Shown in pieces: positions 10,974-62,724 of a stretch of 64,000 nucleotides of DNA (positions within the stretch are counted from its first letter, which is position 1; every line of letters starts with the position of its first letter). Source of the DNA: Candidatus Rifleibacterium amylolyticum. GTDB taxonomy: Bacteria > Muiribacteriota > Ozemobacteria > Ozemobacterales > Ozemobacteraceae. The notes beneath the pieces are model-generated. The model was not told the origin of the DNA and searched no databases. It saw only the letters and a list, made by a program, of their open reading frames with translations. Location of the stretch: assembly GCA_009917695.1 (NCBI GenBank), contig JAACJG010000001.1, forward strand, positions 143,219-207,218. The letters are read 5' to 3'. Made by a program: the position numbers and the translations under genes.

Positions 10974-11009
10974 TCTCTGGCTCCGGTTCTGTAAAACATT
11001 CTGTGTTAC

Positions 11010-11477: not shown

Positions 11478-11542
11478 AATTTATAAACCTACCATGAGAA
11501 AATCGGCCAAGTCAATGCACAAAACGACTTTTATGGGCATAA

Positions 11543-11776
11543 TTACAACTTCAATCCGGCGCTGGCCCCGTCAGATTTTTTCTTTACGATCCGGTGCGTA
11601 TGAATACGGCGCTTATAATTCATGATGCGGTGTAGAACTTCATGCACTGATTCTGCGACCATGACCGTTTTGCCAGTATACAGGGTGATGACAGTATCGG
11701 GAGACGACTCGATCTGTTCAATGAGTTCGGCATTCAGATAGAACTTCGCTCCATTGATGCGCGAAAGCCTGATCAT
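11543..11776 (-). CDS. flbD: Flagellar protein FlbD (SwrD).
   Basis: The roughly 70-aa protein reads MIRLSRINGAKFYLNAELIEQIESSPDTVITLYTGKTVMV, which is typical of FlbD. It lies immediately downstream of flgE. Confidence 0.65.
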   Translation of the reverse strand: MIRLSRINGAKFYLNAELIEQIESSPDTVITLYTGKTVMVAESVHEVLHRIMNYKRRIHTHRIVKKKSDGASAGLKL

Positions 11777-11797
11777 ATCAATTCGTCTCCCTTACTG

Positions 11798-14542: not shown

Positions 14543-14877
14543 AGCACAATTTCCTCTTCTTTCGGCTTAATGTGCCGTTAACCGCCGGTTCCGTTCCATC
14601 GTCACCACGGTACGCTCCATGAAGAGTGGAGCAGTCGACCGGGGGAGAAGAGCCTGCCTCATGCAGGAGTCTCCCGCCGGCCAATCCGCTGGGATTGGCA
14701 AAGATCATTCGTTTTTCTGTTTCCGCCTTCTGTCAGTCCGGCGGTCTGGCTTCCCCGGGAGGGGTCCGGCCATCTTATCGGATTTGTTTTTGCCTTATGA
14801 TCTCTGCGTTTTCCCGATCGTTCGCTTCCTTATGGATCTGTTTGCTTTTCTTTCATCTTCTGTTTTTGCGTTTCTCC

Positions 14878-15276
14878 TTATCCATACTTCATACTTACGC
14901 TGTCTATATTGGTCACCATTCCGTTTCGCATCTCGTCAATTCCCATAGCTGTCACCAGCGTGCGGCTCGGAACATTCACGACAAAGGCGCCTTCGCGGGT
15001 TATCACCAGCGAGTCTCTGGCTCCTTTTGCCTCCAGCTCTGAAAACGCGCGGTTCAGCGAATTCTCAAGGGCCGGGTTCATGCTTATGTTTCTTTCCGTG
15101 AGGCGCTTCTGGGCATGGGCACTGATGCGAAACTGTGTCGGTTCTGCTACAGCTTTCTGGAAAAGATCGCCGAATGACGCTGCGCCTGGCAGACCTGCTG
15201 CCGTGCTGTTGCTTCTCGTCGGCCTGATTCCCGTCAGCTGCGGTCCCTGCGGACCGATCATCAGTCTGGGATCCAT
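14878..15276 (-). CDS. Small flagellar-operon protein between flgD and flgE. It may belong to the flg_new family of flagellar operon proteins.
   Basis: It is 132 aa and sits between flgD and flgE, as this family does in Firmicute and spirochaete fla operons. The assignment is from position and memory of the family and was not verified by search. Confidence 0.4.
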   Translation of the reverse strand: MDPRLMIGPQGPQLTGIRPTRSNSTAAGLPGAASFGDLFQKAVAEPTQFRISAHAQKRLTERNISMNPALENSLNRAFSELEAKGARDSLVITREGAFVVNVPSRTLVTAMGIDEMRNGMVTNIDSVSMKYG

Positions 15277-15313
15277 GATTTGCCTCGTGTGAGTCAGATT
15301 AAGTTGTCAAGGT

Positions 15314-15760
15314 TCAGCCGCTTTGCGGCAGTTCATATATGGTCGGGCTGACAAGCTGAACGTCTTCGAGATTGTAAGCGTCGTCGCCGATCTTGAGGAA
15401 AGGCACGCCATCCTTGAAGCCGACCATATCCACTGTGCCGGTAACCGCTTCTTCCATGTCGGGTTTCTGCACTGTAACGGTAGTGCCCAGATACATCATG
15501 GCCTGGGTGTGTGAGTTGCTGGCGAGAATGTTCGACATCGCTTCCAGAGACTTGTTCATGTTGAGCATCTGCTCAAGTGAGCTGAAACTGGACATCTGGC
15601 TGATGAAATTCATGTCTTCCATGGGATTCATCGGATCCTGATTCTGCAGCTGCACGGTCAGAAGCTTCAGGAAGTCGTCTTTGCCAAGCTCCTGTGTCGG
15701 CGTTCTTGTCGTATTCAGATTCAAGCCGCTTTCCGGTATGTTCACTGTTTCTATAGCCAT
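15314..15760 (-). CDS. flgD: Flagellar hook capping/assembly protein FlgD.
   Basis: The FlgD N-terminal motif is present (LGKDDFLKLLTVQLQNQDPMNPM). The 148 aa protein lies between fliK and flgE. Confidence 0.8.
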   Translation of the reverse strand: MAIETVNIPESGLNLNTTRTPTQELGKDDFLKLLTVQLQNQDPMNPMEDMNFISQMSSFSSLEQMLNMNKSLEAMSNILASNSHTQAMMYLGTTVTVQKPDMEEAVTGTVDMVGFKDGVPFLKIGDDAYNLEDVQLVSPTIYELPQSG

Positions 15761-15773
15761 CGAACCATGCCTC

Positions 15774-44528: not shown

Positions 44529-46475
44529 TTGAAACGTATTACCAGTTTGTTTGTCGTTCTTTGTCTGCTCGGCTCTGGCGCCGCTTTTGCCGCTGGAGTG
44601 TCTGTAAGCACTGCGCGTGGTTATTCAACCACTCTGACCATCGATTGTCCCAAAGTTGAATTGACCGAAGCCCAGGTTCTCGGCGCCAAAGCCTATATGG
44701 TTACCGCTCCCGAAGCTTCTCTCTCTTCTGACAAAGATGCTCCGACCCTTCCGGTCTATACCGCAATGGTAATGGTAGACCCGGTGCGCCGCCCGGTTTT
44801 CCAGGTCAACAGCCTCGAATCCGAAATCATCGAAATCGATGCGCGTGTAATGCCCAGCAAAGGCAACTTTACCCGCAACATCAACCCCGCTGATGTTCCT
44901 TTCAACTTCGGCCCGGCTTATGAAGCCAATACCTGGTATCCCGCTGACAAAGACCTCGTCAAAATGGGCGAACCTTTCATCTTCCGCGATATCCGCGGTG
45001 TTAACCTGATTGTTAGCCCGGTTCAGTACAATCCCTCAACTAACAAGCTCAGAATCCACAAGAAGATACAGGTTTCCATCAACGCTGACGAAAAAGCTTC
45101 TAAAAACACCATGAAGAAGTCAAACCCGATCAGCAAAGTTTTCGAACCTATCTACAAGAATACTTTCGTTAACTACAAAGAAGCCGCTCGCCGCCTGCCC
45201 CGCCTCGACGAAAATGGCCGCCTGCTCATCATCTGCTACGACGATTTCATGAACGCCATGAAACCCTTCGTAGACTGGAAGAAGAAAATCGGTATCAACG
45301 TTAAACTCGTTCCGCTCAGCGAAGTTGGCAAGACCAACACTGAAGTCCAGACTTTCATCACTGATGAATTCAATCAGGGTGGCCTCACTCACATCATGCT
45401 GGTTGGCGATGCTGAACAGATCCCGACCAACAAGGGCGTTAAAGAACGCGCCGACTCTGACCCCTGCTACGTAAAACTCGCCGGTGACGATCATGTTCCG
45501 GATGCAATCATCAGCCGTCTGTCAGCCACCACTGAAAAAGACGTAGCCTATCAGGTTGCCAAGTTCATCAACTATGAACGTTTTCCGACCGAAGACAAAG
45601 CCTGGTATACCAGAGCTCTCGGTATCGGTTCTAACGAAGGTAACCCGACCGACAAGGCTTACATCGAAGAAATCCGCCAGGTTCTTCTTGGCAAAATGTT
45701 CACCGAAATCGCTACTGCCTATGACCCGGGCGCAACTGCCGCTATGGTCACTGAAGCCGTTAACAAGGGTCTCAGCCTGATCAACTATCTTGGCCATGGC
45801 TCCGGCACCAGCTGGGGTACTACCCGCTTCAACAACACCAATGCCAGCCAGCTCAAAAATGGTTGGATGATGCCGGTAATCTGGGACGTCGCCTGTGTTA
45901 ACGGTCGCTTCGTTAACTACACCGGTTTCGGCGAAGCCTGGATGCGCTCAGGTAACATCGAAGCTCCGGCCGGCGCCGTTTCTTATGCCGGCGCGACCAC
46001 CAACATGGAATGGGTTCCCCCGATCCACGTTCAGGCCGAATTCAACAAGAACTACATCGCCAATGAAGTATACAAGACCACCGGTGGTATCTTCATCAAC
46101 GGTATCATGAAGGGTCTTGAACTCTACACCACTGACCCCAAGAAATCTGGCGTCATGATGCTCGAGCAGTGGCACCTCTTCGGCGATGGCACTACTCTGG
46201 TTCGCTTCAAGGCCCCGACCAAAGTTAAGGCTGAAAACCGCGCTACCCGCAATGGTGATGCCGTAACTGTAAAAGTTAACGTTGTCGATGAAGAAGGCAA
46301 GCCCGTAAGCAACGCCCGCGTTACCGTTTACACTGAAGGCGTCGAAAACATTCGCGTCGCTACCACCAATGACGAAGGTGAAGCTGTTGTGACCATGGAA
46401 AACATGACCGCCGGTTATGTTACCATCATCCACTCAGACATCGTTCCGGTTGTAGACGAGCCAATCGTTTTCTGA
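44529..46475 (+). CDS. Secreted peptidase C25 (gingipain-like cysteine protease) family protein with a C-terminal Ig/CARDB-like domain.
   Basis: The signal peptide reads KRITSLFVVLCLLGSGAAFAAG. A C25-like catalytic region is present, with the His motif INYLGHGSGTSWG and the Cys motif WDVACVNGRF. The C-terminal 90 aa forms a beta-domain. The start is TTG with a canonical SD. Confidence 0.6.
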   Translation: MKRITSLFVVLCLLGSGAAFAAGVSVSTARGYSTTLTIDCPKVELTEAQVLGAKAYMVTAPEASLSSDKDAPTLPVYTAMVMVDPVRRPVFQVNSLESEIIEIDARVMPSKGNFTRNINPADVPFNFGPAYEANTWYPADKDLVKMGEPFIFRDIRGVNLIVSPVQYNPSTNKLRIHKKIQVSINADEKASKNTMKKSNPISKVFEPIYKNTFVNYKEAARRLPRLDENGRLLIICYDDFMNAMKPFVDWKKKIGINVKLVPLSEVGKTNTEVQTFITDEFNQGGLTHIMLVGDAEQIPTNKGVKERADSDPCYVKLAGDDHVPDAIISRLSATTEKDVAYQVAKFINYERFPTEDKAWYTRALGIGSNEGNPTDKAYIEEIRQVLLGKMFTEIATAYDPGATAAMVTEAVNKGLSLINYLGHGSGTSWGTTRFNNTNASQLKNGWMMPVIWDVACVNGRFVNYTGFGEAWMRSGNIEAPAGAVSYAGATTNMEWVPPIHVQAEFNKNYIANEVYKTTGGIFINGIMKGLELYTTDPKKSGVMMLEQWHLFGDGTTLVRFKAPTKVKAENRATRNGDAVTVKVNVVDEEGKPVSNARVTVYTEGVENIRVATTNDEGEAVVTMENMTAGYVTIIHSDIVPVVDEPIVF

Positions 46476-46490
46476 TCCAGCTCTGAATTA

Positions 46491-46527
46491 AAAGCCGGTC
46501 ACCGTAAGGTGGCCGGCTTTTTTTTTT
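46491..46527 (+). terminator. Rho-independent terminator of the C25 gene. It also serves as the attachment site for the downstream group II intron.
   Basis: AAAGCCGGTCACC-GTAA-GGTGGCCGGCTTT forms a stem, followed by ten T residues. Confidence 0.7.
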
Positions 46528-47087
46528 ATAGTGTGCCCGGCATGGGCGATAACTCGGCGGTGCAAGTCCGCTACAGGCTTGGCAGCAGGAACTGTTAGCC
46601 AAAGGCAAGGGTGTCCACCGTGAGGTGGAATCTGAAGGAAGCCGGAGGCAAACCCTCGGCCCGATGAACAAGAACCGTATATAAGGCACTACGTGACTGG
46701 ACGAGCTTGCTATACAAAGCAAAGTCCGATACTGCCCGAGGTCTGCGGTGTAGATACGGCGGGTATATGAGGGGAAAGTTATCGTTCTTACCCGGGGAGA
46801 TCTTGTAGTGGTCGCCGACAAGAGGGATGGTTAGACAACCCACAGCGACAGGTGGGGCAGCAATGCCCCACTGAACTACAAGAAGTCAGCAGAGGCCATA
46901 GTAACGCGGCGATGCGCGAAGGGCCGAACAATGGTTAATCTTCGATCGTATGGATGGCGTGATGACGCAACGACTGCCGAATACTGTTCCAACAGGCTAC
47001 CTCTGCAATGATACGGTGGAACCGGAAAGTAACAGAGGAGCGCATAGCGCCGTTATACCAAAAATCGAAAAAAAAATCGAAACGAAG

Positions 47088-47957
47088 ATGGGTGCAGATG
47101 CTTTGCTCGAAATGGTGCTAGACAGAAATAATCTGAATCAGGCATACAAGCGGGTGAAGCAGAATGGTGGTGGCGCTGGCATTGACGGGATGACGGTCGA
47201 TCAAATGCTGCCTTATCTGAGAGCTCACGGGAGCAGTCTGCTGGAAGAACTTGCAAGCGGAAAATACCGTCCCCAACCTGTTAAAAGAGTTGAGATTCCG
47301 AAACCAGACGGGGGAAAACGACTGCTTGGTGTACCAACGGTAATAGACCGTATGGTTCAGCAGGCAATCGTGCAGGTATTACAACCGATATTCGAGCCGA
47401 CTTTCTCTGACAGCAGTTTCGGGTTTCGTCCGAAGCGAAGTGCACAGCAGGCGATCAAGCGGGCGAAGGAATATTATGAGCGAGGATACTCCGATGTCTT
47501 AGACATTGATCTCGCCAGATATTTCGACACCGTAAACCACAACCTGCTGATCAGAATGGTCAGGGAGCATGTGAAAGACGAACGGATAATCAACCTGATA
47601 CGCAAATTCCTTCGGAGTGGCGTTCTGGCTGGTGGTCTCGTAAGTCCGACAGAGGAAGGAACCCCGCAAGGTGGCAATCTTTCTCCGTTGCTCAGCAATA
47701 TTTACCTCACGAGCTTTGACAGACTTCTGGAAAGCAGAAATCATCGGTTCGTGAGGTATGCGGATGACTGCAATATCTATGTCAAAAGTCGTAGAGCTGC
47801 TGCCAGAGTGATGGCCGGATGTGTCAAATTCCTCGAAGGAAAGCTTAAACTCAAGGTTAATCGTGAAAAGAGCCGTGTCGGAAGCCCGCTAAAGCTGAAA
47901 TTTCTTGGTTTCTCACTGTATAAAAGGCAAGAAAACAGGAATAAGACCACATCATAA
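47088..47957 (+). CDS. Group II intron-encoded protein, reverse-transcriptase domains (fragment 1 of a frameshifted ORF).
   Basis: RT0/RT1 reads LNQAYKRVKQNGGGAGIDGMTVDQ. RT3/4 reads LDIDLARYFDTVNHNLL. RT5 reads FVRYADDCNIYVKS (YADD). The track ORF begins at ATG 46950, and the typical IEP start MGADALLEMVL is at 47088. Confidence 0.75.
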   Translation: MGADALLEMVLDRNNLNQAYKRVKQNGGGAGIDGMTVDQMLPYLRAHGSSLLEELASGKYRPQPVKRVEIPKPDGGKRLLGVPTVIDRMVQQAIVQVLQPIFEPTFSDSSFGFRPKRSAQQAIKRAKEYYERGYSDVLDIDLARYFDTVNHNLLIRMVREHVKDERIINLIRKFLRSGVLAGGLVSPTEEGTPQGGNLSPLLSNIYLTSFDRLLESRNHRFVRYADDCNIYVKSRRAAARVMAGCVKFLEGKLKLKVNREKSRVGSPLKLKFLGFSLYKRQENRNKTTS

Positions 47958-48363
47958 GCCCCTTGAGACCTTCAAAAATAGGGTTAGAATGATTACCAGT
48001 CGCAGAAGAGGAAGATCGGTCAGTCAGATTCTACAGGAAACAAAAGTTTTCACCACAGGCTGGCTGGGCTACTATGCCATTGCAGATATGAGGGAGCGTA
48101 TATCCGAACTTAACGAATGGATAAGACGGAGAATACGTCAGTATACATGGAAGCAATGGAAGAAGATCAGCGCGAAATTCCGAAATCTGAAGCAGCTTGG
48201 GATTCCTGAAGAGCGGTCATGGATGTGGGCGAATACCAGGTTGGGTTACTGGAGAACGGCTGGGAGCCCTGTGCTGACAAGGTCATTAACAAACAAATAC
48301 CTCGTATCTATCGGATATGAAGACATATCAGTAAGATACGAGGCATTGCATCAAAACCATTGA
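47905..48363 (+). CDS. Group II intron-encoded protein, thumb/X maturase domain (fragment 2, in a +1 frame relative to the RT part). No endonuclease domain is present.
   Basis: The X-domain reads GWLGYYAIADMRERISELNEWIRRRIRQYTWKQWKK...RLGYWRTAGSPVLTRSLTNKYLVSIGY. It ends 1 nt before domain V. The frames switch within 47908..47925, which contains an A4 run. An IEP that lacks the endonuclease domain is typical of class C introns. Confidence 0.65.
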   Translation: MVSHCIKGKKTGIRPHHKPLETFKNRVRMITSRRRGRSVSQILQETKVFTTGWLGYYAIADMRERISELNEWIRRRIRQYTWKQWKKISAKFRNLKQLGIPEERSWMWANTRLGYWRTAGSPVLTRSLTNKYLVSIGYEDISVRYEALHQNH

Positions 48364-48508
48364 ACCGCCGTATACCGAACGGTACGTACGGTGGGGTGAG
48401 AGGACAATGGGTGAAATAATCACCCATTTCCTACTCGATTGCTCGCGTTTTGTCTCTTCTTAGCTTCAGCGAAACAGAGCAGGCGTGTTTGTTTTTCTTG
48501 CGTAATCT

Positions 48509-48573: not shown

Positions 48574-49107
48574 TTAAATAATACCGTTGAGCAGTAGTAT
48601 GCGCAGAATCAGGTTGGCGATCATGCCGGCGGCTAGATCGTCGGCAACAATGCCGGTGCCACCGCGAAAAGTCTGAAAAAGGTTGATTGGAAAAGGCTTG
48701 AGAATATCGAGCAGGCGAAACAGGATGAAGCCGACGACAATGGCGGCAGAGCTGGCATCCCAGATAAAAAGCAGAGTCGTCCACATCCCAAGCGCTTCGT
48801 CTATCACTACTTCTTCGGGGTCGATGCTGCGGTCGATCTTTTCAATACGCTCTGATATTCCGATTGCAATAAGCGTAAAAGTGAAAAACAGCCCAATTTG
48901 AGGCCAGGCGCCAAGATTCTTTGTCATCATGAAAAGGGCAATGCCAGGCAGGCTGCCAAGAGTGCCCGGCGCTTTCTTGATGTAACCGAGGCCGAAGCAT
49001 GAGCCCAGCAGCTTGATGCTGCCGATGCTTGCTGAACTGTTAGTCCAGGAAGTGCCAATTCTTTTTGAAGTAGTCATAACCAGAATACACCGTGGCGACA
49101 GCTGCAA
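48574..49107 (-). CDS. pgpA: Phosphatidylglycerophosphatase A.
   Basis: The PgpA signature reads LLGSCFGLGYIKKAPGTLGSLPGIALF...VVIDEALGMW. The track start at 49107 overlaps pgsA by 68 nt. An internal start at 49077 (MTTSKRIG...) would reduce this overlap. Confidence 0.65.
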   Translation of the reverse strand: MQLSPRCILVMTTSKRIGTSWTNSSASIGSIKLLGSCFGLGYIKKAPGTLGSLPGIALFMMTKNLGAWPQIGLFFTFTLIAIGISERIEKIDRSIDPEEVVIDEALGMWTTLLFIWDASSAAIVVGFILFRLLDILKPFPINLFQTFRGGTGIVADDLAAGMIANLILRILLLNGII

Positions 49108-53204: not shown

Positions 53205-56200
53205 TCAGGCTTCGCCTTTTGACCGCTCGATGTGAACCAGCGATCTTTTCGCGTCGTTAGCCAGCGGGCCGGTTGGATCGAGTTCGATAACCTTGTTATA
53301 TTCTTCGCTCGCACGGTCATACATGTTTTTGACACGATAAATACTGGCCAGTCTGAAATGTGCTTCAACATAGTTGGGATCGAGCTGGATAGCTTTTCGG
53401 TATTCCTGCATCGCCTCGTTTTTCATGTTGATCTGATAGTTCTCGTTGTAGGCTTCGCCAAGCTCGTAATGTGCTCTTGGACTGTTTTCGTCGACCTTTA
53501 GGGCCTTGCGGCAGATGGCGATTGCTTCGTCATACATGTGCTTGCCGCTGATAGACTGTTTGCTGTAGACGATCTTCAGGCCCCAGTATGGCCAAAGGTT
53601 ATTGGGGTCACAGCTGTTGGCCAGCTTAAAGTAGTAAACGGCCTTCTGCTGCTCTTCTTCAGTTGGAGTAAAGCCGGACCCCAGCGTTATGAAAGCATAG
53701 CCCAGGCTGAAGTTCGCCATGGTATCTTTGGGGTTGGCTTCAGCTTTCGTCTGGTATTCCTTTAACAGCGCGGCCAGCTGGCGGTCGCGATCCTGTGCTT
53801 TGGCGAGCATTTCCTTGCTGATGTCGATTATCTTCATATGATAATCACCGCTCATTGGCTCAAGTTCAAGCAGCTGGCGCAGCTCTGAAAGCGCTTCCGC
53901 AAACCTTGTCTGGCTCTGATAGAGGTCAGCCAGTTTCCGATGCACGTAAGTGCTTTCCGGGTCTTTTTCCAGGATCTGCTTGTAAATGCTCTCGACATCG
54001 GCGAGCATGTTGCGGCGATGATAAACCTTCGCCAGTTCGGTCATCGCAAATACATTGCCGGGGTCAAGCTCAAGAACCTTTTGAAAGCATTCTATCGACT
54101 GCGTGATCGCCGTTTCTTCGTCGATTTCTGCATCGAGGCCCTTTGACACAAACAGGCCGAGCTCAAGCCAGTCGCAATAATTCTGACCCTGTTCTACCGC
54201 TGCGCGGATGGACTTGTTGAAGTCCTGCAGCTCTTCGGGCGAACTGAAGTTGTTGAGTGCTTTGAATTTCAGCTGGGTGATCAGCTCAATTCGCAGGTCA
54301 ACATTGGTTGGAAAGTATTGTTTGGCGGTACTGAGAGCCTCTACGGCTTCAACTATCTTGCCTTTGCGAATATGCAGGTTGCCAAGTCTGAGTGGAAGTT
54401 CCTTGTAGCGGGCGTTTTTGTCGAGTCCGATAGCCTGTTCGTATTCGAAGGTGGCTTCATCAAACATGTTCTTTGATTCGTAGAGAGACCCGAGTTTGAA
54501 ACGTGCGTCGAGATTGTGGTTGTCAAGGTCGATGATGCTGTCATAATGCATGATCGCCGTATCGACGTCGCCTTCTTTTTCGGCTTCAGCTGCTTTGGCG
54601 AAGGCTTCGTCGATTTCCTGACTGCGCTGGGAGGCTGAGAGATTGGCAAAGAAATCTGATGCCACCATATTGCCGGCATCAACTTCAATGACCTTTTGAA
54701 ACCATACTCTTGCCGTGTCGAAGTCGTTCTTTTCGCGATAAAGAATGCCGAGTTGAAGAACCGGGTCGAGTTCGGTCGGAATGACCTGATTGGCGGCCTC
54801 GTATTTTTCGATGGCTTCATCAACCCAGCCCTTGTCCTGAAAAATCTTGCCAAGCATATACAGACCCTGGAAATGGTCTGGAGCCATGCCGAGCAGTTCC
54901 TGCAATTCGATAGATGCTTCATCGGGCTGATCTATCTTCATATATGTCTGGGCCAGAGAGATGTATACTTCTGGCTGTTCCGGGTCAATTTCTTTTGCTT
55001 TCAGCAGCGCTTCAAGTGCTTTCTCGTATGATTCCATGGTGAAATGGAGATTTCCCAGTTCATACCAGGCAATCTGATTGTTGGCCTGAATTTCGATGAC
55101 TTTTTCATACTCGAGTACAGCATTTTTGAACATTCCGCGTTCTGAAAAGATGCGGGCCTGCTTGATACCTTCGTTTGCCTGTGAACTTACTTTAACGTTC
55201 ACCAGCGCATTGTAGTATTCCTTGCCCTGTAGATGAAGCGGATCAAGCTCAAGTACCCTGGTGAATTCCTTCAGAGCATCATCGACTTTGCCGAGGTCGT
55301 TATAGGCCTTGCCCAGCTCGAAATGAGCATTTACCGATTTTTCATCAAGACTGAGAGCTGTTTTTAGTTCAGTAATACCACTTTCAATCATGCTGCTGTC
55401 ATTATATGACTTGCCCATGTTGAGATAAATGCAGCCAAGCTCTGTTCTGGCGATAGGATTGTTGGGCTCGTCTGCGATGATATCCTTGAAAGTCATACTC
55501 GCCTGATCTATCATATTGCTGATAGAATATACTCGGCCAAGCTGAATCCGCGCCATGGTGTTGTTGGGATCATTGTTGATGAGGGTTTTGAGCTCAAGTA
55601 TCGCCATCTCATGATCGCCGGTTCTGGCGTAGGCCTCAGAAATTATTGAGCTGATCTCATTATTACCGGGGTTAATCTGACGCGCTTCCTGAAGAATTGC
55701 AATTACCTGTGCAAAATCTTCGCAGGTCATGTACAGTCTGGCGATCTCAAGAGTTATCGAGAGATCCTGCGGTGCAACTACTCTGGCCTGATTCAGCACT
55801 TCAAGACCTTCTTCGAACATCTGGCGACTCTGATAAATGCGCGACATCTTGACATACAGGCTGATATCTTCGGGAGTCTGCTGACGCAGATTCTCAAGCT
55901 CATCGAGAGCCTGTTGATGGAAATTTCGCATCAGGTATATATCGACGAGGTTATTGAGAAACTGCGGCGACTGGTCGGAGAGCTCACGTGCCTGCTGCAG
56001 ATAGGCAAGGCCGTTTTCGCTGTCGCCTTCCTGAAGAAGATTGCTGCCGAGTTCAAGATACAGTCGGGGATCGCGTGCGCCAAGCGAAATTGCCTGCTTG
56101 AGCGAGGCGATCTGGTCGTGGGTGCGGCCAAGCGCCCGGTAAAGCTCGCCAAGGTCGAGATGTGCCTTGAGATTGTCGGGATTGCGCTGGATAATAACGT

Positions 56201-57812
56201 TGTATGAGCGAATGGCTTCTTCGTTCATACCCCGCTGTTTATAAATTTCGGCAAGAATTTCGTGTGGGCTGGTGTCTTCAGGATTCAGTTGCAGAGCCTG
56301 CTGCAGTGATGTGATCGCTTCTGAGACGAAGCCCAGTTTAAGATATATCGGGCCAAGAATGTTCAGCCAGCGTGAAGACGGGTTCAGCTGATGGAGGCGC
56401 AGAAGTGTGGTCACGGCATCACGATCTCTGCCGCCCGCGATCTGGAGTTCGTGCAGATCGCTGAGGAGCTCGATGTTGGCCTGATCGTTCTCCAGAAGAG
56501 CATTGATCGCATCGATTTCTTCGTTGATCATGCCCTTGCTGCGATAGATCATGCGCAGTTCACCCTTGATATCGCTGCGGCCCGGGTCAAGTTCGAGAAC
56601 CCGCATATAATATGTGTTGGCTTCTTCTATCATGCCCTGCTCGCCGTAAGCTCTGGCCAGAATCAGTGCCAGTTCAGAGTCTTCCGGGATGCTGACGCTC
56701 AAGGCTTCGAGCGCATCAAGGCAAAGAGCTGCATTGCCGCCGGCTCGAACTATTTCATACAGGCGTTCCAAGATGTCGTAGTCTTCAGGATCAGATTCGA
56801 GAGCTTGTTTATAGCATTCTATCGCTTTGTCGAGATCGCCATTGGCAGCGTATGAAGCTGCCAGGTTTTTCATGATTTCGCTTGAGGACGTATCCTGTGC
56901 TGCTATGGCTTCGTATTCTTTTATCTGAAGTTCATACAGGCCCTTTTCGCCATAGAGATTCGCAAGCTCGTAGCGGATTTCAAGCCAGTCAGGCTTCATC
57001 CGGGCGATAGCCTCGAATTCCTGGAGAGCTTCTTCCATCATTTCAAGTCTCTGATAAAGCTTGCCACAGCGGTAGAAAAGTTCGACATTGTTCTTGTCGA
57101 GCTCTTTTACCGCCTCGTATTTGGCGAGGGCCTCTTCAAATTTGCCGCGAGTTTCGAGGTCCTTGGCGATTTTGAAATGAATAGCCGGATTGTTTGGGTC
57201 GAGATATTCGGCTTTTTTATATTCCATCATCGCATCGTTATATTGACCATTGAATTCATAGGCTTCGCCAAGCTCTGAGTGAAGTCTGGCGTTGTCAGGA
57301 TCGTTTTCGATGGCCTGTTGATATAGCGAAATTGCGCTGTCAATATCGTTCTGAGTGATTTTAAGACGGGCCAGTTCAATTATGGCGCCGGTGAATTTGC
57401 GGTCCAGGTCAATGGCTCGATTGAAGTGCTTTTCGGCTTTATCAAAAGAATTGCGCTGTAGATAAAGCTGGCCGAGGTCAAATTGCAGTTCTTTGTTGTC
57501 CGGGGCCAGGCTTATCGCCTTGTCATAGATCTCTATTGCCTGATCGGTCTGACCAGTCTGGATATACAATGATCCAAGGGTGTTGAGAGCAGGAGCATCT
57601 GCCGGAGACAGCGAAATGATGTTCTCAAGAGTTTTAATTGCCTCGGTCTTGTTGTCGAGATGCTGATAGCAGTCTGCCATCAGTTTCATTGCCGGCACGA
57701 AGTCCGGCTTTTCTTCAAGTACCTTTCCGAGGGTCTTGCTGGCTTTTTCGTAGTTCTGCAGCTCGAAGTATGTCTGCCCTTTTTCCAGAAGGATTTCCCA
57801 GCGGTTAATCAT
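53205..57812 (-). CDS. Giant tetratricopeptide-repeat protein of 1535 aa.
   Basis: The protein is essentially wall-to-wall 34-residue TPR units (W-LG-Y...A...Y..A..L.P.N pattern repeated more than 35 times). No signal peptide is seen. Confidence 0.7.
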   Translation of the reverse strand: MINRWEILLEKGQTYFELQNYEKASKTLGKVLEEKPDFVPAMKLMADCYQHLDNKTEAIKTLENIISLSPADAPALNTLGSLYIQTGQTDQAIEIYDKAISLAPDNKELQFDLGQLYLQRNSFDKAEKHFNRAIDLDRKFTGAIIELARLKITQNDIDSAISLYQQAIENDPDNARLHSELGEAYEFNGQYNDAMMEYKKAEYLDPNNPAIHFKIAKDLETRGKFEEALAKYEAVKELDKNNVELFYRCGKLYQRLEMMEEALQEFEAIARMKPDWLEIRYELANLYGEKGLYELQIKEYEAIAAQDTSSSEIMKNLAASYAANGDLDKAIECYKQALESDPEDYDILERLYEIVRAGGNAALCLDALEALSVSIPEDSELALILARAYGEQGMIEEANTYYMRVLELDPGRSDIKGELRMIYRSKGMINEEIDAINALLENDQANIELLSDLHELQIAGGRDRDAVTTLLRLHQLNPSSRWLNILGPIYLKLGFVSEAITSLQQALQLNPEDTSPHEILAEIYKQRGMNEEAIRSYNVIIQRNPDNLKAHLDLGELYRALGRTHDQIASLKQAISLGARDPRLYLELGSNLLQEGDSENGLAYLQQARELSDQSPQFLNNLVDIYLMRNFHQQALDELENLRQQTPEDISLYVKMSRIYQSRQMFEEGLEVLNQARVVAPQDLSITLEIARLYMTCEDFAQVIAILQEARQINPGNNEISSIISEAYARTGDHEMAILELKTLINNDPNNTMARIQLGRVYSISNMIDQASMTFKDIIADEPNNPIARTELGCIYLNMGKSYNDSSMIESGITELKTALSLDEKSVNAHFELGKAYNDLGKVDDALKEFTRVLELDPLHLQGKEYYNALVNVKVSSQANEGIKQARIFSERGMFKNAVLEYEKVIEIQANNQIAWYELGNLHFTMESYEKALEALLKAKEIDPEQPEVYISLAQTYMKIDQPDEASIELQELLGMAPDHFQGLYMLGKIFQDKGWVDEAIEKYEAANQVIPTELDPVLQLGILYREKNDFDTARVWFQKVIEVDAGNMVASDFFANLSASQRSQEIDEAFAKAAEAEKEGDVDTAIMHYDSIIDLDNHNLDARFKLGSLYESKNMFDEATFEYEQAIGLDKNARYKELPLRLGNLHIRKGKIVEAVEALSTAKQYFPTNVDLRIELITQLKFKALNNFSSPEELQDFNKSIRAAVEQGQNYCDWLELGLFVSKGLDAEIDEETAITQSIECFQKVLELDPGNVFAMTELAKVYHRRNMLADVESIYKQILEKDPESTYVHRKLADLYQSQTRFAEALSELRQLLELEPMSGDYHMKIIDISKEMLAKAQDRDRQLAALLKEYQTKAEANPKDTMANFSLGYAFITLGSGFTPTEEEQQKAVYYFKLANSCDPNNLWPYWGLKIVYSKQSISGKHMYDEAIAICRKALKVDENSPRAHYELGEAYNENYQINMKNEAMQEYRKAIQLDPNYVEAHFRLASIYRVKNMYDRASEEYNKVIELDPTGPLANDAKRSLVHIERSKGEA

Positions 57813-57873
57813 TCGCCTGTCTCCTTAGCTGTGTCATATATATCAGTGTTTCTGTATTGCCGCAACGCTGGCA

Positions 57874-60800
57874 TCAATCGTCGCCCTCCTCGGCTTCCAT
57901 CAGTTCATCCGCTTTTTCAAAGGCTTTGACCGCCTCTTCTTTTTTACCCATGCCGCGATAAGTTTTGCCGAGCAGGAAGTAAACCGTGGAGCCGGCTTCG
58001 GGGAATCCGGCCGCTTTCTGCAGATTCTGCAGAGCTTCTTCATAAGATTCTTTTTCAAGGTAGTCGGCACCGATCTTGAGCAGAACTTCGTAGTTCTCTT
58101 CCATCTGGCCCTGAGCCTTCTTGAAGGATTCGGTAGCCTTTGACTTGTCATTGAGTCCTTCGTAAGCTTTACCCAGCAGGAAGTGGGCTTCGCCATTATC
58201 GGGGGTGATGCTTACGGCTTTTTCGAGCGCAGGCGCCGCTTCAGCCAGCATGCCATTGTCAATGTAGAGTTTGCCCAGTTCGAAGTAGACTTCCTGGTGG
58301 TTTGAATCGAGGTTGATGACTTTCTTGAATTCTTCGATCGCCTCAGTGACCTTGAGCTGCTTATAATAAGCTTTTCCCAGCTCAAAGTGAGCCCGGCTGT
58401 TGGTCGGATAGCGATTGATCGCTTTTTTGTAGAGACGAACCATTTTTTCGTAACTCTGGTGTTCCCAGAATATTGCGCCAAGTGCATAAATGCATTCAAT
58501 CAGGTTTTCATTGAGCGCCAGTGCCTGTTCGAAGTTGGCGGCAGCTTCGTTCTGCTGACCAAGCCCGCGATAGGCTTCCCCAAGCTCAAAGAAGAACAGA
58601 GCATTTTTAGGTGCCGCTTCGACTGCTTTTGAATAGAGAGCGACCATGGCATCGTAATTCTGGTTCTGCTTGTATTGAGCGCCAAGCCGATAAATGATGT
58701 TGAGGTCGCCGGGCTTGAAATCGAGCGCCTTTTCGAATGAGTTTATGGCACCCTGAACGTCGCCGAGTTTTTCGCAGGCTTCGCCAAGTTCTTTGTGAAC
58801 CAGGTAGTTCTCGGCCTCGAGCTCGATAGCCTTTTCGTAAAACTCTTTTGCTTCCTGCCACTGTTCCATTGACAGGTGGATCGTGCCAAGCTTCTGGTAG
58901 ACGTCGACATAGTCATCCTGCAATTCGAGAGCGCGTTTGAACTTGAGCATGGCATCGTGGTATTCGTCGCGCTGATAGTAGACGTCGCCGAGCTCGTAGT
59001 AGATGACGGCATTCTCAGGATCGAGCTGGCTGGCTCTCTGAAGCTCATCGATGGCGTCATCGGTGCGCCCGGTGTCGCGCAGGTGGCGGCCAAGCTCAAG
59101 GTGGGCGCGCTTGTGGTCAGGTGCCAGTCCGATTACAGTCTTGAATTCATTGATGGCATTGTCGTTCAGGCCCTGGGTCGAATAAATTATGCCAAGCTCG
59201 AAGTGAGCGCTGGCATTGCGTGGATCGAGGCTTATTACCTTGCGGTAAGCGTCGACAGCTTCGTCGATGATGCCCTGGCTGGCGTAGGCCTTAGCCAGTT
59301 CAATATTAACCGCGATATTTGAGGGCTCGTAATTGAGGGCTTCTTTGAATTCGCCGATCGCTTTATCGACGCGCCCCTTGTTGATATAAGCCATTGCCAG
59401 CTCGCGGTGCGGTACCGGGCTGCTGCCGTCAATCTGAATTGCCCGGCTGAAGCGTTCGATCGCCATGTCAAGATTGCCCTGTTTTCTGTGCATCAGACCA
59501 ATCTGAGTCAGAATTTCAGCGTTGTTGGGTTCGCGTTCGAGCGCCGCTTCGAATTCACGCAGAGCATCGGTCAGGCGATTGAGGTGATCGTAGACCTTAC
59601 CGAGTTCGAGGTGAATCATTGAGTTCTGTGGATCGGTTTCGAAGACGCGTACGTAGTATTTGGCCGCTTCTTCCCACTTTTCAAGGGATGCGTAGATTTT
59701 GCCGAGGCGAATAAGCGCATCGGTGCGCTCTTCGTTGATTTCTGCAACTTTGAGATATTCGTCAAGCGCTTTTTCGAGCTGACCGCAGTGGTAACAGGTT
59801 TCGGCCAGGCGGAAACGGGCCGAATGGTTTTGCGGATCCATTTCTACCAGCCGGCGATAGCAGTTTCCTGCCAGCTCATACTGCTCTGACATGTTGTAGA
59901 GGTCGCCGAGATTGGCGAGCGCTTCGCCAAGTGACGGGTCGATTTCGAGAGCCAGCTTGTATTCTTCGATAGCTTTGGCGCTCTTGTCCTGGTCGAGATA
60001 AACTTCAGCCAGTTCGACATGAGCCTGCGGCGCATCCGGGCGAATCTTGATGGCTGATTTATAAGATTCAACCGATTTTTCAAGGGCATTGCGGTGATGG
60101 TAGATTCGGCCAAGCTCAAGGTGGGCTTCGAATATTTCAGGCTCGATGTCGACTACTGTGTGAAGAGCATTGAGAGCCTTATCATGCAGATCTCTGATGA
60201 TGTAGATCTTGGCCAGCGACATCTGAGCCGGGACATGATCAGGCTTGATTTCGACCACTTTTCTGAATTCGTCTTCGGCCTTATAAATCTGGTTCGTGCT
60301 TTCATACAGGTGGGCGAGGTTCTCATGGGCCAACAGGCCTTCGGGCTGCAGTTCGATGGCTCTGAGATATTCTTCTTCTGCTTCTTTGAGCAGATCTAAT
60401 CGCTCAAGAGTGTTGGCGTAGAGTATGATCGCATCAATGAAGTCGTTTTCACGCTCAAGAACTTTTTCGAGAATGTTCTTCGCTTCCTGCCAGTTGCCAG
60501 AATCAGCATGGAGTCTGGCCAGATCGAACTGAATCCAGGACGGGTCTGGTGCCAGGGTGATGGCGCGACCCAGTTCGTCGATAGCCTGCTGGAAACGGCC
60601 ATTGCGGTGATGCAGCAGACCCAGGTAATAACGGGCCTGATAGTGCTCAGGTTCGAGCTCGATAGTTCTGGTCAGCCGTATTCGTGCGGTTTCATCCTGA
60701 TTCTCTTCGAAGCTGATGCGGCCGATGGCAAAATGCGCTTCAGTATAGTCAATATCGAGTTCTACGGCTTTGCGCAGATTGGCGAGAGCCTTTTCTGTTT

Positions 60801-62724
60801 CTTTGATGTCTTGGTAGACGCGGCCAAGTTCGTAGTAACCCTGGGCAAAGTTCGGGTTGATGCGGATAATCTTCTGATAAAGCTTGATCGCTTCTTCTTC
60901 ATGTTTTTCGGCATACTTGATTTCGGCCATGTGCAGATATGCCGGAATATAGGTTTTGTCCTTTTCGGCGGCCTGTGAGAAATAGTCGTAAGCCTTGCTC
61001 AGATTGCCCATCTTTCGGTAGACATCGCCGGTTTCAAAATATGCACGCGGATCTTCGGGGTCGAGTTCGGTGACCAGTTTGCAGGCTTCAAGAGCCTGAT
61101 CATACAGAGGTGTTGAGTTCTCGAGTGTTGTCAGATAAGAGTTCTTGAGGCCCCAATACGCCCATTTGAAATCAGGAGTAAGATTGATCGCCATCTGATA
61201 GCCGTTGAGAGCCTCTTCAAGCCGTTCTTCCTGCTTTTCGGGCAACTGCGACGGCAGAACCTGACAGGCGTAGGCCAGGGCAAAGTGTGATACCGGGTTC
61301 TGGAAGTCAACCATAGCTGAATTCTTGTATTGTTCGATGAACTTGCTGTAAAGTGTTTCGGTATCTTTGCTGTCGAGGGTTCTGATGCGGTAGAGGTCGA
61401 TCTGGTTCATAATCGCCAGCGGGCTTGATTTGTCGATTTCGAGAGCTTTTTCAAAAGCCTCATAGGCTTCTTCATACTGACGGCGTTTTACATAGATTTT
61501 ACCGAGCTCTATCCAGGCACCGAGAGCGTTGGCTTCTTTGAAGAAGCGCAGCTTGTTGAAAAGATAGCCTTCCTGGTATACGTCATGGGTGCGGTTGCGC
61601 GACAGTTCGATAACTTCGCGGAATCTGGTGATCGCGAGCTCGAGCATTCCCATCAACAGATGAATGCTTCCCAGCCGAAAGTGGGCAAAAACATTGGTCG
61701 GGTTGATATTGAGACCCTGCTGGTAATATTCGATAGCCTGGTCGTAATTGGCCTTCTGCTCGCTGATGTAGCCGAGTCGGAAGTAGGCGGGAGCATAGCC
61801 CGGGCTGAGTTCAAGAGCGCGGCGGTAGCTGCTGTGCGCGCTGGCCAGGGCTTCTTCTGTAATCATCGCGTGTTCAGCCTGCGAAATCAGATAGCATTCG
61901 CCGAGCTCGAAATTCAGGCGCGGGTCGTCACTGATCTGGTCGAGGGCCGCCAGCAGCTGGTCAACCGCCTTGTCGTAACGGCCATCATAAATATACAGAT
62001 CTTTGATGCCAAGATGTGCCCAGAGATTTTTCGGATTGATTTCGAGCGCGCGCTCCATCATCAATTTTGCTTCCTGGCGCTGCTCGACAAATTTTTCGCT
62101 GTCCTGCGAATGCAGAATCAGATAGGCGTTGCCCATAATGCAGTTTGCCATCGATTCGCTCTCAATTGTGCGCAGATCTTCGCGCAGCTTGTCGATAATT
62201 GCCTGATAGCGCTGCTCGCGATCAGGCATGTTCGAACACAGCGCTCTGTATTGGAGAATAAGTCTGATCCAGGTTTCACCATCTTCAGGCTCGCTTTTCA
62301 GACACTGGCGATAAGATGAGATCGATTCGTCAAAGATGCCCTGAACCGAGTAGATGTCGCCGAGAGCCTTATGCACTATCGGGTTCTGAACGTCGAGAAT
62401 AGCAGCCTTCTTATAGTCGAGCAAGGCTTTTTCAAAAAGACCCTTGTTCTTGTAGATGCTGGCCTGGCTGATATACAGGTTGACACGTTCCTGCTTCTCA
62501 TCGTCAGAAAACAGGCTGGCACGTTCTTTCATCAGCACCAGCTCATTCTGCTCGGCCAGTTTTTTGAGCGAGTCGAGATACTCGCGCGAAGCGGTGCCTA
62601 TCTCCAGGAAAATGCAGCGCGCTTCCTGCGCATGATAGAACATGCACTGTTCCTGTATGCACCCGCCTTCCGGGCCTTTGTCTTCTCTCAGTTTACCCAG
62701 AAAAGGGCATATTTCCTTGGTCAT
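57874..62724 (-). CDS. Giant tetratricopeptide-repeat protein of 1616 aa with an N-terminal Cys-rich segment.
   Basis: The TPR repeats run throughout. The N-terminus MTKEICPFLGKLREDKGPEGGCIQEQCMFYHAQEARCIF contains four Cys that might form a zinc knuckle. The start codon overlaps the ftsK stop (ATGA). Confidence 0.7.
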   Translation of the reverse strand: MTKEICPFLGKLREDKGPEGGCIQEQCMFYHAQEARCIFLEIGTASREYLDSLKKLAEQNELVLMKERASLFSDDEKQERVNLYISQASIYKNKGLFEKALLDYKKAAILDVQNPIVHKALGDIYSVQGIFDESISSYRQCLKSEPEDGETWIRLILQYRALCSNMPDREQRYQAIIDKLREDLRTIESESMANCIMGNAYLILHSQDSEKFVEQRQEAKLMMERALEINPKNLWAHLGIKDLYIYDGRYDKAVDQLLAALDQISDDPRLNFELGECYLISQAEHAMITEEALASAHSSYRRALELSPGYAPAYFRLGYISEQKANYDQAIEYYQQGLNINPTNVFAHFRLGSIHLLMGMLELAITRFREVIELSRNRTHDVYQEGYLFNKLRFFKEANALGAWIELGKIYVKRRQYEEAYEAFEKALEIDKSSPLAIMNQIDLYRIRTLDSKDTETLYSKFIEQYKNSAMVDFQNPVSHFALAYACQVLPSQLPEKQEERLEEALNGYQMAINLTPDFKWAYWGLKNSYLTTLENSTPLYDQALEACKLVTELDPEDPRAYFETGDVYRKMGNLSKAYDYFSQAAEKDKTYIPAYLHMAEIKYAEKHEEEAIKLYQKIIRINPNFAQGYYELGRVYQDIKETEKALANLRKAVELDIDYTEAHFAIGRISFEENQDETARIRLTRTIELEPEHYQARYYLGLLHHRNGRFQQAIDELGRAITLAPDPSWIQFDLARLHADSGNWQEAKNILEKVLERENDFIDAIILYANTLERLDLLKEAEEEYLRAIELQPEGLLAHENLAHLYESTNQIYKAEDEFRKVVEIKPDHVPAQMSLAKIYIIRDLHDKALNALHTVVDIEPEIFEAHLELGRIYHHRNALEKSVESYKSAIKIRPDAPQAHVELAEVYLDQDKSAKAIEEYKLALEIDPSLGEALANLGDLYNMSEQYELAGNCYRRLVEMDPQNHSARFRLAETCYHCGQLEKALDEYLKVAEINEERTDALIRLGKIYASLEKWEEAAKYYVRVFETDPQNSMIHLELGKVYDHLNRLTDALREFEAALEREPNNAEILTQIGLMHRKQGNLDMAIERFSRAIQIDGSSPVPHRELAMAYINKGRVDKAIGEFKEALNYEPSNIAVNIELAKAYASQGIIDEAVDAYRKVISLDPRNASAHFELGIIYSTQGLNDNAINEFKTVIGLAPDHKRAHLELGRHLRDTGRTDDAIDELQRASQLDPENAVIYYELGDVYYQRDEYHDAMLKFKRALELQDDYVDVYQKLGTIHLSMEQWQEAKEFYEKAIELEAENYLVHKELGEACEKLGDVQGAINSFEKALDFKPGDLNIIYRLGAQYKQNQNYDAMVALYSKAVEAAPKNALFFFELGEAYRGLGQQNEAAANFEQALALNENLIECIYALGAIFWEHQSYEKMVRLYKKAINRYPTNSRAHFELGKAYYKQLKVTEAIEEFKKVINLDSNHQEVYFELGKLYIDNGMLAEAAPALEKAVSITPDNGEAHFLLGKAYEGLNDKSKATESFKKAQGQMEENYEVLLKIGADYLEKESYEEALQNLQKAAGFPEAGSTVYFLLGKTYRGMGKKEEAVKAFEKADELMEAEEGDD

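Follow-up and report, generated by a model that had tools for sequence, protein, structure and literature searches.

A class IIC group II intron with a frameshifted protein gene behind the terminator of a C25 peptidase gene in Candidatus Riflebacteria

Results

Locus and limits of the intron

The window, by which we mean the whole stretch of 64,000 nucleotides of a Candidatus Riflebacteria chromosome that was analysed, carries a group II intron between two convergent genes. The intron has the orientation of the C25 peptidase gene and interrupts no gene:

44529-46475, + strand: C25 peptidase gene, upstream of the intron
46490-46527, + strand: intrinsic terminator of the C25 peptidase gene (terminator scan; fold; the hairpin is also present in the empty-site contig L010)
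46531-48439, + strand: complete group IIC intron of 1909 nt, GUGUG to CUCGAU (empty-site allele, homology, Rfam)
48574-49107, - strand: pgpA, convergent with the C25 peptidase gene

The terminator consists of a 14-bp hairpin (46490-46521; -25.5 kcal/mol, z -6.9 in the fold) and a T-run reaching 46527, after which ATA leads into the GTGTG at 46531. The intron thus starts 3 nt past the T-run of a strong terminator, as a first-pass annotation of this DNA had claimed, and the gene coordinates agree with its description of a convergent C25 peptidase and pgpA. Insertion between convergent genes is plausibly neutral.

Both intron boundaries are exact to one base, because an allele of the empty site is known. 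In a metagenome contig of the same species (L010, 97-98% identical; 97.4-98.2% identity between its flanks and those of the window), GGCTTTTTTATA is joined directly to TGCTCGCG, with the junction reading ...TTTTATA/TGCTCG.... Similarity to copies at other sites runs from 46531 to 48439, plus 2 matching exon bases. The extent of 46491-48434 proposed in the first-pass annotation has to be revised accordingly, as the empty-site allele places the 3' end at 48439, and 46491 belongs to the terminator rather than to the intron. An empty-site allele, which it had advised looking for in related genomes, is present in strain L010. The filled site was assembled independently in SRR6186653 with 100% identity; over 15 kb an independent short-read assembly agrees, at 100% and without a gap, with the flanks and the two ends of the intron. 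The intron is polymorphic, filled or empty, within one species, and the insertion is probably recent, the sister strain L010 having the empty site. This polymorphism, together with the at least 9 sites occupied by the subfamily, is indirect evidence of splicing and retromobility.

Two other placements of the ends were considered and rejected. The dinucleotide TG follows ...CUCGAU in all four close copies, as would be expected if the intron ended at 48441 or if its target included a 2-nt motif on the 3' side. This is ruled out by the empty site (ATA/TGCTCG), by the TA found in L019 and by the variability of the exon +2 base, which across 45 sites is G at 15, A at 15, T at 11 and C at 3; the G that the close copies share at +2 is a coincidence. 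Upstream, blastn alignments to L008 and L009 begin at 46495, but this is a mere likeness of two GC-rich terminator hairpins, and the introns of those loci start with GTGCG after their own hairpin.

Ribozyme domains

The following ribozyme features were located:

46536-46796, + strand: domain I (closing helix 46536-46540 / 46792-46796; RNAalifold compensatory changes; RF02001)
46630-46640, + strand: 11-nt epsilon-prime bulge, AUCUGAAGGAA, with AGGAA, IIC-specific (RF02001 alignment)
46797-46887, + strand: domain II (RNAalifold consensus; 5' part of the RF01998 match)
46896-46923, + strand: domain III (RF01998 match; RNAalifold pairs with compensatory changes)
48365-48394, + strand: domain V, with a CGC triad at 48366-48368, a 2-nt bulge and a short distal stem (RF00029; fold)
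48397-48437, + strand: domain VI, with a bulged branch-point A at 48433 (RF00029 alignment; fold)

A group II ribozyme is expected to begin with GUGYG, to end with AY and to contain domains I-VI; here we find GUGUG at 46531, ...GAU ending at 48439 and three Rfam matches above the gathering score. RF02001 matches 46614-46786 with 153 bits (E 4.5e-32), RF01998 matches 46849-46924 with 65 bits, and RF00029 matches domains V and VI at 48363-48439 with 47.5 bits. The RNAalifold consensus of domains I to III, built on 37 relatives, contains 99 pairs, of which 70 show compensatory changes. The fold of domains V and VI has an energy of -38.7 kcal/mol (z -6.2) and leaves A48433, the seventh base counted from the 3' end, bulged. 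The structural comparison that had been proposed for the element thus recovers domains I-III, V and VI.

In class IIC, the basal stem of domain V has CGC instead of AGC, the distal stem is 2 bp shorter, and an 11-nt epsilon-prime bulge with a conserved AGGAA is a mark of the class (PMC1702495). In the RF00029 alignment, the AGC of the consensus stands opposite CGC at 48366-48368, and 4 nt (2 bp) of the general consensus are missing from the distal stem; this domain V is also found in ~70 relatives. The AUCUGAAGGAA bulge is unpaired in the RF02001 consensus alignment and almost invariant across the 37 relatives. As first described, domain V with its CGC triad lies 1 nt past the stop of the reading frame (stop 48361-48363, spacer 48364, domain V from 48365), and the estimate of about 630 nt outside the frame is close to the ~633 nt obtained if the frame starts at 47088.

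The intron-encoded protein and its frameshift

The gene for the intron-encoded protein (IEP) is present in two pieces:

46950-47957, + strand: IEP gene piece 1, reverse transcriptase (RT) fingers/palm, RVT_1 (Pfam E 9e-40), with a premature stop at 47955-47957
47925-47926, + strand: site of a 2-nt (CA) deletion, UAUAAAAGGCAAG in the window against UAUAAAACAGGNAAG in all relatives
47926-48363, + strand: IEP gene piece 2, out of frame, maturase/thumb (GIIM) and C-terminal DNA-binding domain (Pfam GIIM E 2.7e-15)

The first-pass annotation had described a single RT-maturase frame without an endonuclease domain. The latter part stands, since Pfam detects RVT_1 and GIIM only and no endonuclease domain follows; the former does not, as the RVT_1 and GIIM parts lie in different frames because of a 2-nt deletion relative to every relative. 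In the nucleotide comparison the CA deletion is absent from six relatives, all of them intact, and it is also absent from L095 and L097. Removal of one base makes the IEP colinear with the RT of the GsI-IIC intron (6AR1) across the junction, and the intact protein is one residue longer (...LYKTGKK...). A first model, in which the frameshift was one extra A in the run 47922-47925, was discarded when the nucleotide comparison identified the change as a CA deletion. Exact look-ups of the 335-aa and 289-aa truncated products in a gene index returned no match, and the deletion junction was not found in a scan of JGI metagenomes. Candidate starts of the IEP are the ATG at 47088, which is aligned to the start of the GsI-IIC RT, and the upstream in-frame ATGs at 46950 and 46962; an in-frame N-terminal extension of ~40 aa is conserved among homologs.

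As the first-pass annotation had anticipated, the protein groups with those of IIC introns and not with retron RTs. It matches 6AR1 with E 3e-126 and the Eubacterium rectale (E. rectale) IIC maturase (7UIM) with E 4e-103, compared with E 3e-40 for the IIA protein LtrA, E 3e-35 for IIB and about 1e-6 to 1e-12 for retron and DRT RTs. The top solved-structure matches are all IIC RTs, colinear to the C-terminus. Intact homologs reach up to 89-95% identity, and the relatives in plasmid and phage collections, annotated ltrA, are only 68-71% identical.

Target pairing and survey of insertion sites

The elements involved in target pairing are:

46527-46530, + strand: IBS1 (UAUA), the last four 5' exon bases, 4/4 Watson-Crick to EBS1
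46711-46714, + strand: EBS1 (UAUA), in the loop GC-UAUA-CA of the Id hairpin (stem 46705-46708 / 46717-46720)
46752-46753, + strand: 3' side (AG) of the Id coordination loop, assigned from its counterpart A231 in the E. rectale IIC intron (PMC10190682)
48440, + strand: candidate IBS3 (T), the first 3' exon base; +1 is T at 42/45 independent IIC sites

The pairing of EBS1 with IBS1, which the first-pass annotation had put forward for checking, is real and covaries across insertions. Over 49 independent IIC sites a mean of 3.59 of the 4 positions are paired, compared with 2.19 in shuffled controls (z 11.4), with all four paired at 32 of the 49 sites and three at another 15. The segment 46711-46714 is the sole part of the intron whose complementarity to exon positions -1 to -4 exceeds that of shuffles. 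Two initial guesses for EBS1 gave way to this hairpin loop, which was chosen by an unbiased scan: UGUA at 46749-46752, whose UGU is paired in the Rfam structure, and the 14-nt single strand 46728-46741. When the first 420 nt of the intron were compared with exon positions -4 to -19, no second covarying segment emerged that could serve as EBS2 (best z <=4.0, negligible effect size). Class IIC introns have a stem-loop in place of IBS2, and here the terminator hairpin occupies exon positions -10 to -41, spanning the usual position of IBS2.

For class IIC we took EBS3-IBS3 to be a single base pair of the IIB type. G46753 is the candidate EBS3, assigned by homology, and would form a G-U pair with T48440. 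Its column is compatible with exon +1 at 44/46 sites, and variants with G in this column take T or C at +1, a weak covariation (Fisher p 0.04).

All inspected intron copies with a 5' flank (49 distinct sites) lie behind an inverted repeat, usually followed by a T-run, and the subfamily of the window's intron occupies at least 9 different hairpin-plus-T sites. In each full-length subfamily copy examined, EBS1 matches the copy's own site at 3 or 4 of 4 positions. The association with terminators suggested at this locus thus extends to related copies behind other hairpin and T-run motifs, and in the window the hairpin at 46490-46521, with its T-run, supplies the stem-loop part of the DNA target.

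Discussion

Class assignment, integration and autonomy

The first-pass assignment to class C of the group II introns is upheld by the Rfam domains, the CGC triad, the AGGAA bulge, the IIC-like RT, the 4-bp EBS1-IBS1 pairing and the terminator. Taking all of the evidence together, we are highly confident that the element is a class IIC intron that retrohomed behind the C25 peptidase terminator, and that the copy is most likely non-autonomous. We propose that a particle of intron RNA and protein targeted the terminator stem-loop in its DNA form, with EBS1 (UAUA) pairing with the UAUA after the T-run and EBS3 with the next T, and that the RNA would then have reverse-spliced between what are now positions 46530 and 48440. 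Because the protein is without an endonuclease domain, the intron RNA was probably copied into DNA from a replication-fork primer; GC skew across the 64 kb is uninformative on the direction of replication, and hence on a lagging-strand-template bias. Since it points the same way as the upstream gene, the intron would be transcribed only by read-through of the terminator.

The 2-nt deletion shifts the IEP frame in the window copy as sequenced. In IIC introns lariat formation requires the thumb and the DNA-binding domain, by which the EBS1 and EBS3 loops are held (PMC10190682). We therefore consider it most likely that this copy is non-autonomous, and that it would splice or move only with protein supplied by an intact copy.

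Alternative explanations

An assignment to one of the other group II classes (A, B, D, E or F), or to a retron, DGR or defence RT, is refuted, and we give it practically no credence. Nothing was found in its favour: the relatives 5HHJ and 5HHL were deposited under the loose name 'retron-type reverse transcriptase' but are fragments of IIC intron RTs. The element has the CGC triad, the AGGAA bulge and a short domain V, EBS1 is 4 bp long with no EBS2 found in the exon scan, and the association with a terminator and the empty site also speak against it, as do protein matches to IIA and IIB that are ~85 orders of magnitude worse than those to IIC and the still weaker ones to retron and DRT RTs.

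The autonomy of the copy is less settled, and two readings would restore the protein. The deletion could be an assembly or consensus error, for example if several intron copies were collapsed in the metagenome; were AAAACAGG the true reading at 47922-47927, the same IIC intron would be intact and autonomous. The element is multi-copy in the source sample, as Logan contigs break just within both intron ends (28 and 72 nt inside the intron), and the independent assembly covers the intron at these ends only. Furthermore, the deletion allele was found nowhere else in the gene index and the JGI metagenomes, all other copies examined are intact, and the window copy has few other private changes. We nevertheless regard an error as unlikely, considering the gapless 15-kb agreement of the flanks and intron ends, the support that the independent contig L011 gives to a further private change (at 48395, U to G), and the nature of the lost CA, which is a dinucleotide and not part of a single-base homopolymer, though it abuts the A-run 47922-47925. 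Far less probable still is that the deletion by chance created a +1 slippery site, UAU-AAA-AGG-C, at which the lysine tRNA would re-pair on the run of four A while the rare AGG codon waits, yielding mostly an RT-only fragment and a little full-length maturase. A +1 shift on AAAA gives back the exact frame (...LYK/GKKTGIRPHHK), the genes in the window use AGG less than any other arginine codon (3.5 per 1000), and both Ty1 and E. coli (AGG-AGG) provide known cases of slippage beside rare AGG codons. However, the site arose by a deletion that is absent from relatives and is therefore not a conserved programmed signal, and the slippage product would be one residue (T) short. If slippage did occur, the intron would not simply be dead; ribosomal frameshifting would throttle its supply of protein.

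Significance

The element is an ordinary bacterial group IIC intron of the self-splicing type, a retroelement that combines a ribozyme with an RT, and its importance beyond annotation is small. For annotation, the RT and maturase frame fragments should be read as one frameshifted IEP within a 1909-nt IIC intron and not as host genes, and the filled/empty polymorphism can serve as a clean marker of strains within this Riflebacteria species. The literature that we searched has no paper naming both group II introns and Riflebacteria; we therefore suggest that this copy extends the documented host range of IIC introns. The 49-site survey confirms independently, from sequence alone, that IIC introns follow the 4-bp EBS1-IBS1 rule and target terminators; both points were already established by experiment and structure.

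Comparison with known IIC introns

Our comparison with B.h.I1, the group IIC intron of Bacillus halodurans, is by description. B.h.I1 inserts just past intrinsic terminator stem-loops, uses an IBS1-EBS1 pairing of 3-4 bp with no EBS2, and encodes a protein without an endonuclease domain (PMC1702495). The window's intron is alike in these traits, and also in its CGC triad, short distal stem and AGGAA epsilon-prime bulge. The two differ in host phylum (Riflebacteria versus Bacillota), in the frameshift of the window's protein gene and in the in-frame N-terminal extension of ~40 aa in the window's clade. The best solved-structure match, the GsI-IIC RT of Geobacillus stearothermophilus (6AR1), is colinear with the repaired window protein over residues 5-424 with no gaps, the repaired junction included, and its C-terminus is where the window protein ends, both being without an endonuclease domain. 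About half of the residues differ, however (a related Geobacillus locus, L084, is 47% identical), and the GsI-IIC RT starts at the window's internal Met at 47088, with no upstream extension.

The E. rectale IIC particle, whose RT (MarathonRT, 7UIM) also matches the window protein, provides a structural model of the grip on the DNA stem-loop, with a 4-nt EBS1 at the D1d tip and a single-base EBS3 in the coordination loop, both loops being held by the thumb and DNA-binding domain (PMC10190682). In the window the candidate EBS3 is a G, which would pair G-U with T, whereas it is an A in the E. rectale intron, and, unlike in the E. rectale intron, the frameshift keeps the window copy from producing a thumb and DNA-binding domain in frame.

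With O.i.I1 of Oceanobacillus iheyensis, the window's intron presumably shares the 5' start GUGUGCCCGGCAUGGG, and we take the domain V of the two, CCGCCGUAUACCGAACGGUACGUACGGUGG, to be identical. O.i.I1 is an ORF-less IIC intron with crystal structures, whose ORF has been lost wholly, whereas that of the window copy is full-length but frameshifted. The frameshift in the window may possibly represent an early stage of ORF decay of the kind seen in O.i.I1.

The insertion site and its empty allele

Public assemblies were searched for exact matches to the pgsA and C25 products. A 24-kb contig (L010, SRR31593245) is 97.4-98.2% identical to the window, and we therefore assign it to the same species. 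The gap between its C25 gene and pgpA is only 185 nt, and the intergenic sequence (...AAAAGCCGGTCACCGTAAGGTGGCCGGCTTTTTTATA|TGCTCGCGTT...) is the left flank of the window joined straight to the right flank. The intron therefore spans 46531-48439 (1909 nt), without a target-site duplication. Matches to copies at unrelated sites begin exactly at 46531 and reach 48439 plus two exon bases that are alike by chance. The first-pass annotation, which had proposed looking for such an allele in related genomes, placed the 3' end at 48434, 5 nt short and just past the branch-point A at 48433.

Features of the locus
44529-46475, C25-family peptidase gene (Pfam Peptidase_C25, E 2e-49), stop codon 15 nt before the hairpin
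46490-46521, 14-bp terminator hairpin, followed by a T-run to 46527 and ATA; the intron starts GTGTG at 46531
46614-46786, + strand, Rfam group-II-D1D4-3 (153 bits, E 4.5e-32)
46849-46924, + strand, Rfam group-II-D1D4-1 (65 bits)
48363-48439, + strand, Rfam Intron_gpII, the DV/DVI model (47.5 bits)
48574-49107, minus strand, pgpA, downstream of the intron
pgsA, minus strand, downstream of the intron

The RNA fold of the C25 terminator (-25.5 kcal/mol) was equalled by none of 200 shuffles, and pgpA and pgsA run towards it; both the strong terminator closing the C25 gene and the convergent setting had been read correctly from the sequence. The terminator T-run (46518-46527) has 10 T in the filled allele (window, also L012) versus 6 T in the empty one (L010, reverse complement of 7001-7330). 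Elsewhere in the window (337-17768 and 53205-62724), a minus-strand flagellar cluster encodes FlhA, a switch protein of the FliY type and a FlgE-like hook protein that is unusually long (914 aa), and is followed by two adjoining giant ORFs (1535 and 1616 aa), the 1535-aa product having no Pfam match on record.

A class C ribozyme

Scanning the whole 64-kb window with Rfam at the gathering-score cut-off gave exactly three matches, all in the intron and all on the + strand. Four distinguishing features of IIC introns listed in PMC1702495 were checked and all are present: a CGC triad (48366-48368) aligned opposite the consensus AGC, a short DV with a 4-nt gap in its distal stem relative to the consensus, the AGGAA bulge (the unpaired 11-mer AUCUGAAGGAA at 46630-46640) and a terminator stem-loop within the 5' exon. 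The fold of DV plus DVI, at -38.7 kcal/mol (z -6.2), shows both the 2-nt bulge expected in DV and, seven bases from the 3' end, a bulged A. In the first 400 nt of 37 relatives, RNAalifold recovered 99 consensus pairs across DI, DII and DIII, 70 of them maintained by two-sided changes in one or more sequences. Structural models and alignment thus cover DI-DIII and DV/DVI, and together with the IIC-like protein described below they uphold the class C assignment.

A scan of one genome per species yielded 80 loci encoding relatives at 47-93% identity. About two thirds match a strict CGC-type DV pattern (CCGCCGUAU...), and in every locus with a 5' flank an inverted repeat, in most cases with a T-run behind it, ends a few bases before GUGYG. 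The window copy carries a private U-to-G change at 48395 in the J5/6 linker (GGUGGGGUGAGAGG versus GGUGGUGUGAGAGG in nearly all of ~70 relatives), also present in the independent contig L011, which may affect DVI positioning and branching.

Exon recognition

To locate EBS1, which pairs with the last four bases of the 5' exon (IBS1), any four consecutive intron columns were compared with exon positions -1 to -4 at 49 independent insertion sites, with exons shuffled among introns as the null and no complement chosen by eye. The best position, 46711-46714, averages 3.59 of 4 pairs versus 2.19 in shuffles (z 11.4; runner-up z 3.2), with 4/4 pairs at 32 sites and 3/4 at 15. It corresponds to the GC[NNNN]CA loop in the terminal Id hairpin, where EBS1 lies in the E. 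rectale IIC particle resolved by cryo-EM (PMC10190682). In the window, UAUA faces an exon end UAUA with four Watson-Crick pairs, bearing out the expected EBS1/IBS1 pairing. Copies of the window subfamily share 88-95% identity overall, and no two have the same four loop bases, which track the local target.

EBS1 and exon end (IBS1) in copies of the window subfamily
L002: AAAA, TTTT
L019: AACA, TGTT
L095: GACA, TGTC
L006: GTAA, CTGC
L008: CTAA, ATGG

EBS1 is distinct in all six copies (these and the window), each fitting its own site, within a DI at least 95% identical. This would mean either that variants of EBS1 send the intron to new targets or that EBS1 undergoes renewed selection once the intron is in place. 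Applied to exon positions -4 to -19, the scan gave nothing comparable, a pattern consistent with the absence of an EBS2. The first base of the 3' exon (+1, the putative IBS3) is T at 42/45 sites and +2 is unconstrained; the candidate EBS3, G46753 within the coordination-loop AG, is compatible with that base at 44/46 sites. Because covariation there is weak (p 0.04), we infer rather than assign this role.

The intron protein and its broken frame

The intron reading frames hold only RVT_1 and GIIM domains (Pfam). All PDB chains were searched for matches to the protein after frame repair.

Matches of the frame-repaired protein
GsI-IIC RT (6AR1), class IIC: E 3e-126, colinear over 420 residues to its C-terminus
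E. rectale maturase (7UIM), class IIC: E 4e-103
Two IIC RT fragments, class IIC: E 1e-83 to 1e-85
LtrA, class IIA: E 3e-40
T.el4h, class IIB: E 3e-35
Retron and defence RTs, not introns: E 1e-6 to 1e-12

The nearest chains are thus IIC RTs, with retron and defence RTs far weaker. Homologs number in the thousands, the nearest being 89-95% identical and intact. The frame is open for 46 codons (46950-47087) upstream of the Met that lines up with where the GsI-IIC RT starts. At 70-78% identity, homologs lack a Met at that position (…EKDGAESLLE…) and start ~38 aa upstream, in a region recognisably like that of the window (MQREQKT.AGY.C.G..ETESNRGV.S). This clade seems to carry an N-terminal extension overlapping the DIV RNA; the conservation there may lie in the protein, the RNA or both. 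Just upstream of the ATG at 47088, within DIV and near the anchoring region of IIC maturases, lies a 12-nt in-frame tandem duplication (47061-47084, AAAATCGAAAAA|AAAATCGAAACG, KIEK|KIET) missing from four other copies (L002, L006, L008, L009).

The first-pass annotation described one RT-maturase ORF without an endonuclease; the domain content stands, but the frame is broken, the RT part stopping at 47955-47957 and the maturase part continuing in the +1 frame to 48363. Nucleotide comparison with six relatives, which read CTGTATAAAACAGGNAAGAAAAC (one with AAG for the AAA lysine codon) where the window reads CTGTATAAAAGGCAAGAAAAC, places the loss of CA at 47925/47926; a further two copies from metagenomes are intact there as well. 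The deletion spares fingers and palm and shifts the frame for the thumb (X) and DNA-binding domain. As these domains grip the EBS1 and EBS3 loops in the IIC holoenzyme, and lariat formation by IIC introns is almost wholly protein-dependent (PMC10190682), this copy should be non-autonomous. It is otherwise little decayed: set against its nearest relatives, it has only 12 private differences, including that at 48395.

The deletion junction is absent from JGI metagenomes, and our look-up found no record of truncated RT/maturase products. A short-read assembly agrees perfectly with the flanks, and the bases lost were CA, not a single-base homopolymer, though they abut an A-run (47922-47925); we consider the deletion probably real. 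After it the sequence reads UAU-AAA-AGG-C, where a +1 slip of the lysine tRNA on four A's would restore the frame exactly, and among arginine codons of the window genes AGG is the least used (3.5 per 1000). Low-level rescue by such slippage is very improbable.

Mobility and distribution

The intron points the same way as the C25 gene, and no promoter-like site was found at its 5' end, so that, by analogy with IIC biology, its transcription would depend wholly on read-through of the terminator. Given a full-length maturase, the RNA would splice as a lariat and form a particle recognising a single-stranded DNA stem-loop, then the 4-nt IBS1, then T. It would then reverse-splice into DNA and, since the protein lacks an endonuclease, be copied from a replication-fork primer (PMC10190682). 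We infer from sequence comparison that retrohoming happened at this site, and recently, because filled and empty alleles are polymorphic between strains ~2-2.6% diverged, the EBS1-IBS1 match is perfect and the same subfamily occupies at least nine different terminator-like sites.

Two Logan contigs of SRR6186653 (L011, L012) match the window at 100% identity along 7.3 and 8.0 kb. Both break off inside the intron (72 and 28 nt in), as is typical where an assembler fails to get through a repeat, and the family is therefore probably multi-copy in that sample. Two related proteins (P0001, P0005) are encoded on ~1760-nt contigs holding intron interior only. In three loci an intron 3' end (…CUCGAU) runs directly into another 5' end (GUGCGCCC…): L018 1823-1915, a 3.8-kb contig of two intron units, L053 ~1877-1945 and L057 ~3762-3840, the last two with N in the junction region. 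These are either tandem head-to-tail copies or assembly artefacts.

In L002-L005 (ENA ERZ7240xx, Logan SRR3330206) an 88% identical copy lies behind a hairpin downstream of an unannotated gene, itself after an ERF-family recombinase gene, a setting suggestive of a phage or prophage. The 3' flank of another locus (L001) holds a YoeB/YefM toxin-antitoxin pair. L096 (Ga0079069_1003045) matches the first 47 nt of the window intron exactly, with only ~57% identity over its whole 1904-nt element (global alignment), and may represent either a separate IIC lineage in which the 5' end is conserved or a recombinant.

The window FlhA shares 94% identity with its counterpart in Candidatus Riflebacteria bacterium GWC2_50_8, followed by many Rifleibacteriota MAG proteins. 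Locus L019 of a Rifleibacterium MAG has, at a different site, an intron with 93% identity. In the plasmid and phage collections the relatives reach only 68-71% identity, and the literature searched yielded no paper treating Riflebacteria and group II introns together. Overall, these data support the original interpretation: the window intron is a new copy of a thoroughly characterised kind, the IIC introns.
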